A stretch of 64,000 bases of DNA from Escherichia phage vB_EcoM_Ozark, in the sequence record NC_054927.1; one strand, written 5' to 3'. Below are positions 5,030-5,977 of this stretch, piece after piece. Positions within the stretch are counted from its first letter, which is position 1. Each line of letters begins with the position of its first letter. A model generated the notes under the pieces. That model did not search any database. It was not told where the DNA came from and was given only the letters and a program-made list of their open reading frames with translations. The position numbers and the translations under genes are program-made.

Positions 5030-5105
5030 TGGTCGAGGCAGTAGGGATCGAACCTACGACCCAGGACTTAGAAGGTCCTTGCTCTTCCTTCTGAGCTATG
5101 CCCCG
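5030..5105 (-). tRNA. tRNA-Arg (anticodon UCU)
   Basis: Hand-folded cloverleaf: acceptor CGGGGCA/UGCCUCG, anticodon loop CUUCUAA, T-loop UUCGAUC, CCA encoded. Confidence 0.8.
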
Positions 5106-5109
5106 TAAT

Positions 5110-5185
5110 TGGGGTGACCGATGGGAGTCGAACCCATGACTACGAGAATCACAATCTCGAGTTCTACCAACTGAACTACGGCCAC
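5110..5185 (-). tRNA. tRNA-His (anticodon GUG)
   Basis: Hand-folded: anticodon stem CGAGA/UCUCG, loop UUGUGAU, discriminator C, CCA encoded. Confidence 0.75.
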
Positions 5186-5299
5186 ATTAATACCTACTCC
5201 AATAATCAAGATGTCTTCACACGAAATTAAGAGAAGAGTGATCAGTTCAACCCCTATAATCGCGTCAAGTAGATATTAATGTGACAGTTGTCACAAATT

Positions 5300-5374
5300 T
5301 GGCGGACGTGATAGGATTCGAACCTATAACCAATCGCTTAACAGGCGATCGCTCTGCCATTGAGCTACACATCC
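5300..5374 (-). tRNA. tRNA-Asn (anticodon GUU)
   Basis: Hand-folded: D-arm GCUC/GAGC, anticodon stem AUCGC/GCGAU, loop CUGUUAA, CCA encoded. Confidence 0.75.
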
Positions 5375-5378
5375 AAAT

Positions 5379-5465
5379 TGGTGGGGAGTGGTGGAGTCGA
5401 ACCACCCGAGTCGCAATGACAATGGATTTACAGTCCACACCGCTACCTCTACGGGATAACTCCCC
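5379..5465 (-). tRNA. tRNA-Tyr (anticodon GUA), long variable arm
   Basis: 87 nt; acceptor GGGGAGU/ACUCCCC, anticodon loop CUGUAAA, T-loop UUCGACU, CCA encoded. Confidence 0.75.
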
Positions 5466-5478
5466 TTAATTCTTAATT

Positions 5479-5553
5479 TGGTGGCCCTGGGTGGAATTGA
5501 ACCACCATCTGGCGATTATGAGTCGCTTGCTTGAACCTTCCAGCTACAGGGCC
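5479..5553 (-). tRNA. tRNA-Ile or Met (anticodon CAU)
   Basis: Hand-folded: acceptor GGCCCUG/CAGGGCC, anticodon loop CUCAUAA; CAU could be Met or lysidine-modified Ile. Confidence 0.75.
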
Positions 5554-5554
5554 T

Positions 5555-5630
5555 TGGTGCTGATTGACGGAATCGAACCGCCGACCTTCTCATTACAAGT
5601 GAGTTGCTCTACCTACTGAGCTAAATCAGC
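5555..5630 (-). tRNA. tRNA-Thr (anticodon UGU)
   Basis: Hand-folded: acceptor GCUGAUU/AAUCAGC, anticodon loop CUUGUAA, CCA encoded. Confidence 0.8.
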
Positions 5631-5635
5631 AAAAC

Positions 5636-5725
5636 TGGCGGAGGCGATAGGATTTGAACCTATGAGTCGCCGGAGCGACTGCCGGTTTTCAAGACCGGTG
5701 CATTAAACCACTCTGCCACGCCTCC
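5636..5725 (-). tRNA. tRNA-Ser (anticodon UGA), long variable arm
   Basis: 90 nt; acceptor GGAGGCG/CGCCUCC, anticodon stem CCGGU/ACCGG, loop CUUGAAA, CCA encoded. Confidence 0.8.
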
Positions 5726-5727
5726 AG

Positions 5728-5801
5728 TCTCCATACAAGGATTTGAACCTTGGACCTCCTGATCCCAAATCAGGCGCTCTACCAAACTGAGCTACACGGA
5801 G
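5728..5801 (-). tRNA. tRNA-Pro (anticodon UGG)
   Basis: Hand-folded: acceptor CUCCGUG/UAUGGAG with G-U pairs, anticodon loop UUUGGGA; CCA not encoded. Confidence 0.75.
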
Positions 5802-5811
5802 TAAATTAAAT

Positions 5812-5885
5812 TGGAGCGGATAATGAGAATCGAACTCACATCATCAGATTGGAAGTCTGAGGTAATGCCATTATACGATATCCGC
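5812..5885 (-). tRNA. tRNA-Gly (anticodon UCC)
   Basis: Hand-folded: acceptor GCGGAUA/UAUCCGC, anticodon loop CUUCCAA, CCA encoded. Confidence 0.8.
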
Positions 5886-5890
5886 AAATT

Positions 5891-5977
5891 TGGTGCGAGA
5901 AGTGGGACTCGAACCCACAAGGAAATCATTCCGCAGCATTTTAAGTGCTGTGCCTTTACCAATTTGACCATTCTCGC
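5891..5977 (-). tRNA. tRNA-Leu (anticodon UAA), long variable arm
   Basis: 87 nt; acceptor GCGAGAA/UUCUCGC, anticodon loop CUUAAAA, T-loop UUCGAGU, CCA encoded. Confidence 0.8.

Follow-up and report, generated by a model that had tools for sequence, protein, structure and literature searches.

Why does a phage of the T4 family carry genes for tyrosine, asparagine and histidine transfer RNAs (tRNAs) that T4 does not have, and lack the gene for tRNA-Gln that T4 does have? The question is posed by a tRNA array of Escherichia phage vB_EcoM_Ozark (NC_054927.1), which we analyzed within a 64-kb stretch of the genome (64,000 nucleotides, hereinafter the window). An original prediction, made from the sequence alone, had obtained ten anticodons by hand folding, compared them with the canonical T4 set (Gln, Leu, Gly, Pro, Ser, Thr, Ile and Arg), and proposed that the three additional tRNAs, all with GUN anticodons, could be a countermeasure to host defenses that target tRNAs, the class at stake being the one cleaved by colicin E5-type nucleases. 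In our analysis, the array is probably nothing out of the ordinary among Tequatrovirus tRNA clusters, namely the allele without segB (T2/RB-type), composed of parts that appear to differ in origin: a core that follows codon demand, a Tyr-Asn cassette that would act against host defense, a module consisting of a structured leader RNA and tRNA-His, and losses caused by homing endonucleases.

The gene content of the array is firmly established. For the window, ARAGORN reports ten tRNA genes and no more, each of them on the minus strand and within positions 5030 to 5977, and automated prediction reproduced every anticodon read by hand, from Leu(UAA) to Arg(UCU), with no differing call. In an independent check with Rfam cmscan, nine of the ten tRNAs match RF00005 with scores of 59 to 74 bits (E values of 1e-11 to 1e-15; gathering score of 29), and the only match of the long-armed tRNA-Tyr is to the related tRNA-Sec model (35 bits). 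The T4 set used in that comparison agrees with the T4 record, and tRNA-Gln is indeed absent, the gene being reduced to its first 7 nucleotides (nt), TGGGAAT. The tRNA with the CAU anticodon, which the original prediction had left ambiguous between Ile and Met, shares 76% identity with E. coli ileX, the anticodon stem-loops (GCGACUCAUAAUCGC) being the same, compared to 58% identity with metT; judging by these identities, it is an Ile2-type tRNA, the anticodon of which is presumably modified with lysidine to read AUA.

The array region is 98.5% identical to that of Escherichia phage teqhad (Tequatrovirus), and the teqhad record annotates the same ten tRNAs. In a census of the GenBank phage collection, the core Leu-Gly-Pro-Ser-Thr block (98.3% identical to that of T4 over 423 nt) is present in 499 records, counting those that cover at least 80% of the Leu-Thr block, the Tyr-Asn pair in 394, and the full block of Tyr, Asn, the gap that follows and His in 185; tRNA-Gln is found in 433 records, a gene for an HNH endonuclease in the place of tRNA-Gln in 62, and segB of T4 in 126. 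Phages with eleven tRNAs, Gln included, occur. The presence of Tyr and Asn is the majority state, His is common, and the absence of Gln is a rare feature; no other version of the tRNA cluster is as common in the T4 family, and the array is a known arrangement that is annotated in many GenBank records of Tequatroviruses. The description of Tyr, Asn and His as extra relative to a canonical T4 set holds in the sense that T4 has none of the three, but it is T4 that represents a derived minority state, which arose via SegB homing. The accessory tRNAs themselves fall into two modules with separate distributions, Tyr-Asn and leader-His.

Homing endonucleases and the differences from T4

The gene order in the T4 record is Gln-Leu-Gly-Pro-Ser-Thr-Ile-[segB]-Arg-rnaD-rnaC. 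The alignment between the window and T4 ends at position 5075 and resumes at 5542, and the intervening segment, 5076-5541, is unrelated. In this part of the array, the similarity is to phage T2L: the CAU-tRNA is identical to the T2L 'tRNA-Met' (75/75, compared to 61% identity with T4 tRNA-Ile), tRNA-Arg differs from the T2L counterpart by one base (75/76, compared to 50% identity with T4), and tRNA-Asn and tRNA-Tyr match those of T2L in 75/75 and 85/87 positions, respectively. By these comparisons, an allelic replacement covers the entire segB-proximal segment. T4 SegB cuts preferentially inside the tRNA-Asn gene of T2L, where it has a 27-base pair (bp) recognition site, and in mixed infection the segB region of T4 replaces the Met(CAU)-Tyr-Asn-Arg region of T2L (Brok-Volchanskaya et al. 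2008, PMC2330249); the Tyr-Asn segment was already described in 2008 (PMC2330249). The tRNA-Asn gene in the window carries an intact SegB recognition site, and because a tblastn search of the window detected no SegB homolog and the alleles are of the T2L type, the array can be classified as the segB-free (T2L-type) recipient allele. The lack of Tyr and Asn in T4 follows from SegB homing: upon homing of segB into tRNA-Asn, T4 would have lost both genes and acquired other alleles of Ile and Arg.

The second difference, the missing Gln, has a similar cause. A 620-nt segment that includes a 202-amino acid open reading frame (ORF) substitutes for bases 8 to 73 of tRNA-Gln, with clean junctions. The match of this ORF to the Pfam HNH family is weak (17.3 bits, E value of 0.005, below the cut-off of 21.4); a CxxC...HxDGN...N...CxxCH motif is visible in the sequence, the ORF shows 35% identity over 170 amino acids (E value of 5e-20) to T5 hegA, which itself resides in the T5 tRNA region, and the teqhad ortholog is annotated as an HNH endonuclease in RefSeq. 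The HNH gene and tRNA-Gln constitute a presence/absence polymorphism at one precise site in near-identical genomes (62 vs 433 records). Replacement of tRNA-Gln by the gene for an HNH endonuclease thus accounts for the missing Gln, which the phage would have lost in this way. Taken together, the differences between the window and T4 are the footprints of two homing endonucleases.

Given such traffic, the accessory tRNA content could be mainly a by-product of homing-endonuclease movement and cassette exchange in a non-essential region under little selection. The SegB site lies within tRNA-Asn and the entire segment is co-converted (PMC2330249), the HNH gene substitutes for Gln exactly, another homing endonuclease adjoins tRNA-His in phage CW742, a statistical association links segB to the tRNA genes of phages, and the composition of the array is patchy among near-identical phages. 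This form of selfish mosaicism is nevertheless quite unlikely to be the principal explanation: the tRNAs are intact and retain their identity elements, tRNA-Tyr is found in three unrelated phage families, and a selective benefit has been demonstrated for the T6 tRNA-Tyr (PMC13096335). Furthermore, tRNA-His is identical in 75 of 76 positions to that of Karamvirus Pet-CM3-4, compared to 86% identity between the Tequatrovirus and Karamvirus versions of the leader RNA that precedes it (see below), implying purifying selection on the tRNA.

Codon demand, tRNA-cutting defenses and the GUN anticodons

To compare codon usage, 68 ORFs of the window (19,561 codons) were set against 76 annotated genes of E. 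coli K-12 (27,256 codons). Each of the seven core tRNAs reads a codon that ranks among the most over-used in the phage: AGA (tRNA-Arg(UCU), 10.8-fold relative to the host), ATA (Ile2(CAU), 5.4-fold), ACA (Thr(UGU), 4.4-fold), TCA (Ser(UGA), 4.3-fold), GGA (Gly(UCC), 3.7-fold), TTA (Leu(UAA), 2.9-fold) and CCA (Pro(UGG), 2.5-fold). The classical codon-demand explanation fits the seven core tRNAs; on the strength of this observed correlation, they would supplement scarce host isoacceptors for A-ending codons that are over-used 2.5- to 10.8-fold.

The same explanation could be extended to the accessory tRNAs, which would then be present only to meet the decoding needs of an AT-rich phage, especially for NAU codons. 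Asn is enriched 1.62-fold (AAT 3.1-fold), an enrichment equaled by Lys and exceeded by no other amino acid, and Tyr 1.32-fold (TAT 1.95-fold); 72-77% of the Asn, Tyr and His codons end in U, and the match of the core tRNAs to demand is very good. Codon demand may indeed contribute for Asn and Tyr. It cannot explain His, the least enriched of all twenty amino acids in the phage (0.58-fold; CAT 0.81-fold, CAC 0.31-fold). Plain codon usage, the explanation that was to compete with the defense hypothesis, is therefore borne out in part for two of the tRNAs and fails for the third. As an account of all three, it appears unlikely: Lys is as enriched as Asn, but the window contains no tRNA-Lys according to ARAGORN; with four asn and three tyr genes in the host, neither isoacceptor is scarce; T4 and the 126 segB-carrying records manage without Tyr and Asn; and experiments link the T6 tRNA-Tyr to escape from the Septu defense system (PMC13096335).

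The case for a counter-defense function is strongest for tRNA-Tyr. The tRNA-Tyr of the window differs by a single base from that of phage T6 (86/87) and is intact, with A73, G34, U35 and a long variable arm that exceeds that of the host by 2 nt. T5 tRNA-Tyr has exactly the same variable arm and T arm, with an overall identity of 77%, and the identity to the Vequintavirus tRNA-Tyr is 96.7%; these similarities imply that tRNA-Tyr, whole or in part, probably spread horizontally among unrelated coliphage families. The Septu system EcB88 (PtuAB) cuts tRNA-Tyr within its variable loop rather than in the anticodon (Chihara et al. 2026, PMC13096335). The T6 tRNA-Tyr, when over-expressed or amplified by SegB, rescues the phage from Septu, and T6 with the tRNA-rich region deleted is Septu-sensitive; T2 is resistant, and T4, without a tRNA-Tyr gene, is sensitive and cannot escape (PMC13096335). 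The PtuAB nuclease of retron-Eco7 cuts tRNA-Tyr at U47/C48 (PMC12673091), and evasion by T5-like tRNA-Tyr requires its longer variable loop (PMC12673091; Azam et al. 2024, PMC11555353). Restoration of plating on nuclease-bearing hosts by tRNA-Tyr has been published for T6, T5 and SP15 (PMC13096335, PMC11555353, PMC12673091). By extension from the T6 ortholog, the tRNA-Tyr in the window would replenish the tyrosine tRNA when PtuAB of Septu or retron-Eco7 cuts the variable loop of the host tRNA. Together with Asn, it forms a cassette in a variable slot between Ile and Arg.

For tRNA-Asn, the relevant feature is the anticodon stem. Positions 39-41 are GCG, compared to UCC in the host (UAAGCG vs UAAUCC), at the site where the AriB nuclease of the PARIS system cuts; AriB cuts the host tRNA-Asn weakly, at U36AAUC/C41 (positions 40/41) (PMC12409363). 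G39, which breaks the UAAU motif, is present in both the window and the T5 tRNA-Asn, and T5 tRNA-Asn contributes to PARIS rescue; tRNA-Lys is the main AriB target, the PARIS-evading set of T5 includes a variant tRNA-Lys(UUU), and rescue of T4 from PARIS requires T5 tRNA-Lys (PMC12409363). A comparable change is found in tRNA-Thr, which is 84% identical to host thrU and has G40 in place of the host C40 (UAAUGA vs UAAUCA), adjoining the AriB site. The tRNA-Asn would meet the high demand for Asn, and the altered positions 39-41 may let it survive AriB. The general proposal that the additional tRNAs counter tRNA-targeting defense thus gains support for Tyr, given the near-identity to the Septu-neutralizing T6 tRNA; for Asn the picture is ambiguous, and for His such a function is conjectural. 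As a proposal for phage tRNAs, the counter-defense idea dates from 2023, colicin E5 included, and experiments demonstrated it in 2024-2026 for the T5 and T6 tRNA-Tyr (PMC10264068, PMC11555353, PMC13096335).

The more specific proposal was that Tyr, Asn and His are carried jointly for their shared G/Q34-U35 anticodons and replenish the class of tRNAs cut by a host nuclease of the E5 type, an idea that van den Berg et al. 2023 (PMC10264068) had put forward for the tRNAs of coliphages. All three accessory tRNAs are GUN, the arrays of Karam- and Jiaodaviruses hold the complete GUN set (Tyr, Asn, Asp and His), and codon demand, as shown above, fails for His. Colicin E5 has four substrates, Tyr, His, Asn and Asp (Ogawa et al. 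2006, PMC1635277), and requires only YGUN at positions 33-36, cutting unmodified G34 without a need for queuosine (PMC1635277). The 7-nt anticodon loops of the phage Tyr, Asn and His tRNAs are identical, base for base, to those of tyrU, asnT and hisR, so the phage tRNAs would be cut by E5 as well. The fourth GUN tRNA, tRNA-Asp, was not detected by ARAGORN in the 64-kb window; the Tyr-Asn pair and leader-His, with 394 and 185 records, are separate modules; and the large Karam- and Jiaodavirus arrays contain many non-GUN tRNAs too. The known nucleases that act on Tyr and Asn cut elsewhere, in the variable loop and at positions 40/41, and colicin E5 is an interbacterial toxin, with no E5-like anti-phage effector found in the literature searched. 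On these grounds, the E5 hypothesis is considered highly improbable: most likely, the shared GUN anticodon is incidental and E5-type cleavage is not the selective agent.

tRNA-His and its structured leader

The spacers in the array are 1 to 13 nt long, with one exception, the 114 nt located 5' of tRNA-His. Most of this gap is taken up by a 95-nt structured RNA that directly abuts G1 of tRNA-His and folds into a three-way junction: P1, a helix of 14 bp, closes the structure, P2-P3 is a long hairpin, and P4 is a short one. This leader is kept in 354 phage records from four genera of Tevenvirinae (Tequatro-, Karam-, Jiaoda- and Gelderlandvirus) and is annotated in none of them; across the genera, tRNA-His follows it at a fixed distance in 13 of the 14 distinct sequence contexts. 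Pattern scans of IMG/VR and metagenomes yielded 5 and 10 loci, respectively, with few new variants.

The structure was assessed in an alignment of eleven distinct sequences, using RNAalifold and counts of base pairs. In the proposed helices, 98.3% of the alignment cells are paired, compared to 37-50% in slid controls; six pairs are changed on both sides, and none of 500 shuffles reaches the observed covariation score, in an alignment the variation of which comes from three or four lineages and reflects few independent events. The fold of the single sequence has a z score of -3.5. A covariance model of the leader scores 106 bits on this locus, the sole real match in the window, and finds no copy in T5, T4, T2L or T6; a cmscan search of the leader against Rfam (E values up to 1) produced no match.

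The inner hairpin (alignment columns 21-57, approximately 5224-5260 in the window) occurs in two versions, unrelated to each other, which have recombined with differing flanks. In the second version, the 11-nt loop, AAGUCAUGAAC, is complementary over 7/7 bases to the 7-nt loop of P4, UCAUGAU; the first version, the one in the window, can form only 4-5 pairs with the P4 loop. This complementarity suggests a possible loop-loop contact between the long and short hairpins. The P4 loop is UCUUGAU in the window and UCAUGAU in the other genera; the heptamer is anticodon-loop-like and resembles the loops of tRNA-Gln and tRNA-His except at position 33, possibly by coincidence. In Salmonella phage STP4-a (positions 1501-1640 of locus L008), the leader is almost intact but tRNA-His is deleted down to GTGG, with tRNA-Asn located 30 nt on; hence the leader can persist without tRNA-His.

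The tRNA-His gene has a GUG anticodon, C73 and a standard cloverleaf, and is 79% identical to hisR, but encodes no G-1: in the alignment with hisR, the base at -1 is T (position 5186). G-1 is similarly lacking in tRNA-His of Karam- and Jiaodaviruses, T5, a Vequintavirinae phage and Aeromonas phage Aes012. Bacterial histidyl-tRNA synthetase (HisRS) relies on G-1 as the main identity element (PMC9976931). Just 5' of the leader lies the perfect palindrome UGUGACA-AC-UGUCACA. Its 3' half, UGUCAC, can instead pair with GUGGC, the first five bases of tRNA-His, lengthening the closing helix of the leader; such pairing would compete with the tRNA-His acceptor stem. The UGUCAC segment is conserved in the Tequatro-, Karam- and Gelderlandvirus copies.

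Several other readings of the gap were considered and rejected. A consensus scan of the 114 nt detected no minus-strand promoter, the only match being antisense (5288-5317), and the T4 early, middle and late motifs, searched by hand, do not fit. A CRP site at 5281-5295 (TGTGA-N6-TCACA core) was dismissed: in STP4-a the arms are 10 nt apart and Karamvirus has no upstream arm, so that the element behaves as a hairpin or pairing segment and not as a spaced protein site. A small ORF that would extend across the leader and on into tRNA-His (ATG ATT GCT GGA...) is broken by a 4-nt deletion in phage EnC07 that keeps the RNA pairs. Apart from the negative Rfam search, a known ribozyme or riboswitch is disfavored by the location of the CUGAUCA motif, in the swappable hairpin rather than the conserved core. 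A degenerate tRNA-Gln, suggested by a 'tRNA-Gln' annotation under one BLAST match, turned out to be the neighboring, real tRNA-Gln of a Jiaodavirus, and covariance-model searches did not show the leader to be homologous to RNAIII of T5 or to rnaC and rnaD of T4. The T at -1 is no special signal either: it is present in 5 of the 10 tRNAs of the array and is the usual base preferred by RNase P, and so is by itself no sign of a retained U-1.

The leader-His module would have arrived as a separate mobile unit, with tRNA-His serving as a supply or decoy against some tRNA-His-directed attack, or else traveling as a passenger of the structured RNA. A tentative possibility is that the leader together with the G-1-less tRNA-His forms a previously undescribed functional unit of Tevenvirinae, in which the RNA is not a passive spacer. 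The leader could control the 5' maturation or use of tRNA-His, or could be a stable decoy or regulator directed against a host tRNA-targeting system. The module is the only part of the array that looks new.

Several points weigh against the composite reading of the array presented here. The function of tRNA-Tyr in the window phage would be carried over, by analogy, from T6 and T5; moreover, a single copy of T6 tRNA-Tyr protects only at an intermediate level and Septu cuts the phage tRNA too (PMC13096335), so the benefit depends on dosage. A role of tRNA-Asn alone in evasion of PARIS is doubtful because the AriB cut of tRNA-Asn is weak and the phage has no tRNA-Lys. The probability that 3/3 accessory tRNAs are GUN by chance is approximately 0.02, when three amino acids are drawn from the twelve uncovered ones; because of this coincidence and the presence of all four GUN tRNAs in Karam- and Jiaodaviruses, a selective factor related to GUN or queuosine keeps a small probability. 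Finally, tRNA-His without G-1 should be a poor substrate of HisRS, which makes a plain supply role uncertain, and no tRNA-His-specific nuclease was found in the literature on PARIS, Septu, retron-Eco7, DARNA, QatABCD, ApeA and bacterial Schlafens, with only trace products reported for tRNA-His in the case of AriB (PMC12409363).

The gain from the analysis is a clean division of the array into parts: seven tRNAs match codon demand almost perfectly, Tyr agrees with a known defense, Asn agrees weakly with both, and His with neither. Should the leader-His module have a function of its own, this would provide a role for the long-known phage 'stable RNAs of unknown function' and reveal a target or tactic that is new to the arms race over tRNAs.

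Array features, neighbors and comparison with known systems

The array occupies the same slot as in T4, with trna.2-4/ipI upstream of it and rnaD, rnaC and the e.x genes downstream, everything on a single strand, according to BLAST synteny with T4 and the annotations of teqhad and T4. The coordinates of the features are given in the table.

Table. Features of the tRNA array of phage vB_EcoM_Ozark and of its surroundings (positions in the window)
Feature	Positions	Strand	Basis and remarks
Intrinsic-terminator-like hairpin closing the tRNA/stable-RNA unit	4690-4713	-	Stem of 10 bp (7 GC pairs) with a T run after it
rnaC homolog (species 1 stable RNA)	4764-4902	-	139/139 identical to T4 rnaC
rnaD homolog (species 2 stable RNA)	4909-5028	-	Mapped from the T4 annotation by alignment; 103/~119 bases identical
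tRNA-Arg(UCU), core, T2L allele	5030-5105	-	ARAGORN; Rfam
tRNA-His(GUG), accessory	5110-5185	-	ARAGORN; Rfam, 65.1 bits; C73 and CCA encoded
His leader, 95-nt structured RNA	5186-5280	-	Abuts G1 of tRNA-His; three-way junction
P4 hairpin of the leader	5201-5215	-	7-nt loop
Palindrome/hairpin	5281-5295	-	Just 5' of the leader; sequence and fold
tRNA-Asn(GUU), accessory	5300-5374	-	ARAGORN; Rfam, 74.1 bits
tRNA-Tyr(GUA), accessory	5379-5465	-	ARAGORN; ortholog of the anti-Septu tRNA-Tyr of T6
CAU-tRNA, Ile2-type, T2L allele	5479-5553	-	ARAGORN
tRNA-Thr(UGU), core	5555-5630	-	ARAGORN; Rfam
tRNA-Ser(UGA), core	5636-5725	-	ARAGORN; Rfam
tRNA-Pro(UGG), core	5727-5801	-	ARAGORN; Rfam
tRNA-Gly(UCC), core	5812-5885	-	ARAGORN; Rfam
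tRNA-Leu(UAA), core	5891-5977	-	ARAGORN; Rfam, 59.3 bits; reads TTA
Free-standing HNH homing-endonuclease gene	5984-6592	-	202-amino acid ORF; occupies the place of tRNA-Gln
tRNA-Gln 5'-end stub, 7 nt	6599-6605	-	TGGGAAT; alignment with T4

Among the ten tRNAs, tRNA-Pro is the only one without an encoded 3' CCA (3' end ...ATGGAGAC), and only one base lies between it and tRNA-Ser, as is the case for the classical Pro-Ser dimeric precursor of T4. The two adjacent stable RNAs contrast sharply in their conservation relative to T4, with rnaC identical in 139/139 positions and rnaD at about 86%. Between e.8 and rnaC, the window has an inserted minus-strand ORF of 157 amino acids (4163-4636) that T4 lacks and that has no Pfam match; it is bracketed by near-identical terminator-like hairpins at 4128-4157 and 4686-4715 (AAAAAGCCCCAACCTTT...GGGGCT).

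With respect to known systems, the likeness to colicin E5 is confined to the YGUN determinant on all three accessory tRNAs; E5 is a bacteriocin rather than a known anti-phage system, the phage tRNAs possess no resistance feature, and Asp is absent. The anti-Septu tRNA-Tyr of T6 and the tRNA-Tyr of T5 and SP15 that act against retron-Eco7 are matched in the window by near-identity to the former and by identity of the arms of T5 tRNA-Tyr. T6 differs in that SegB-driven amplification raises the dosage of tRNA-Tyr, whereas the window has no segB and thus no such amplification route.

The leader has a counterpart in T5, the record of which lists, directly 5' of tRNA-His, a 106-nt 'RNAIII, stable RNA with unknown functions' with a 12-bp closing helix. 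Both are RNAs of approximately 100 nt with a terminal helix of 12-14 bp, located just upstream of a tRNA-His with T at -1. However, RNAIII shows neither sequence nor covariance-model similarity to the leader (E values up to 10), and the order of its inner hairpins is different; by this likeness in size and position, RNAIII would be an analog of the leader, not a demonstrated homolog. The tRNA-rich region of T5 resembles the array also in having HNH homing-endonuclease genes among the tRNAs, hegA being the relative of the HNH gene in the window.

The T4 cluster (NC_000866) shares with the window the genomic position, the Leu-Thr block (98.3% identity) and rnaC, but has Gln and segB, lacks Tyr, Asn, His and the leader, and carries other alleles of Ile and Arg (61% and 50%). 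The clusters of T2L, RB1 and RB3 (AJ880101, AJ884578; PMC2330249) represent the segB-free allele, as the window does, with the same order of CAU-Tyr-Asn-Arg followed by rnaD and rnaC. T2L differs from the window in having Gln, in lacking Thr and His, and in the ORFs trna.1 and trna.2 within the cluster; conversely, the window is distinguished from T2L by the presence of Thr, by an insertion of the leader-His module that separates Asn from Arg, and by an HNH gene in the place of Gln.

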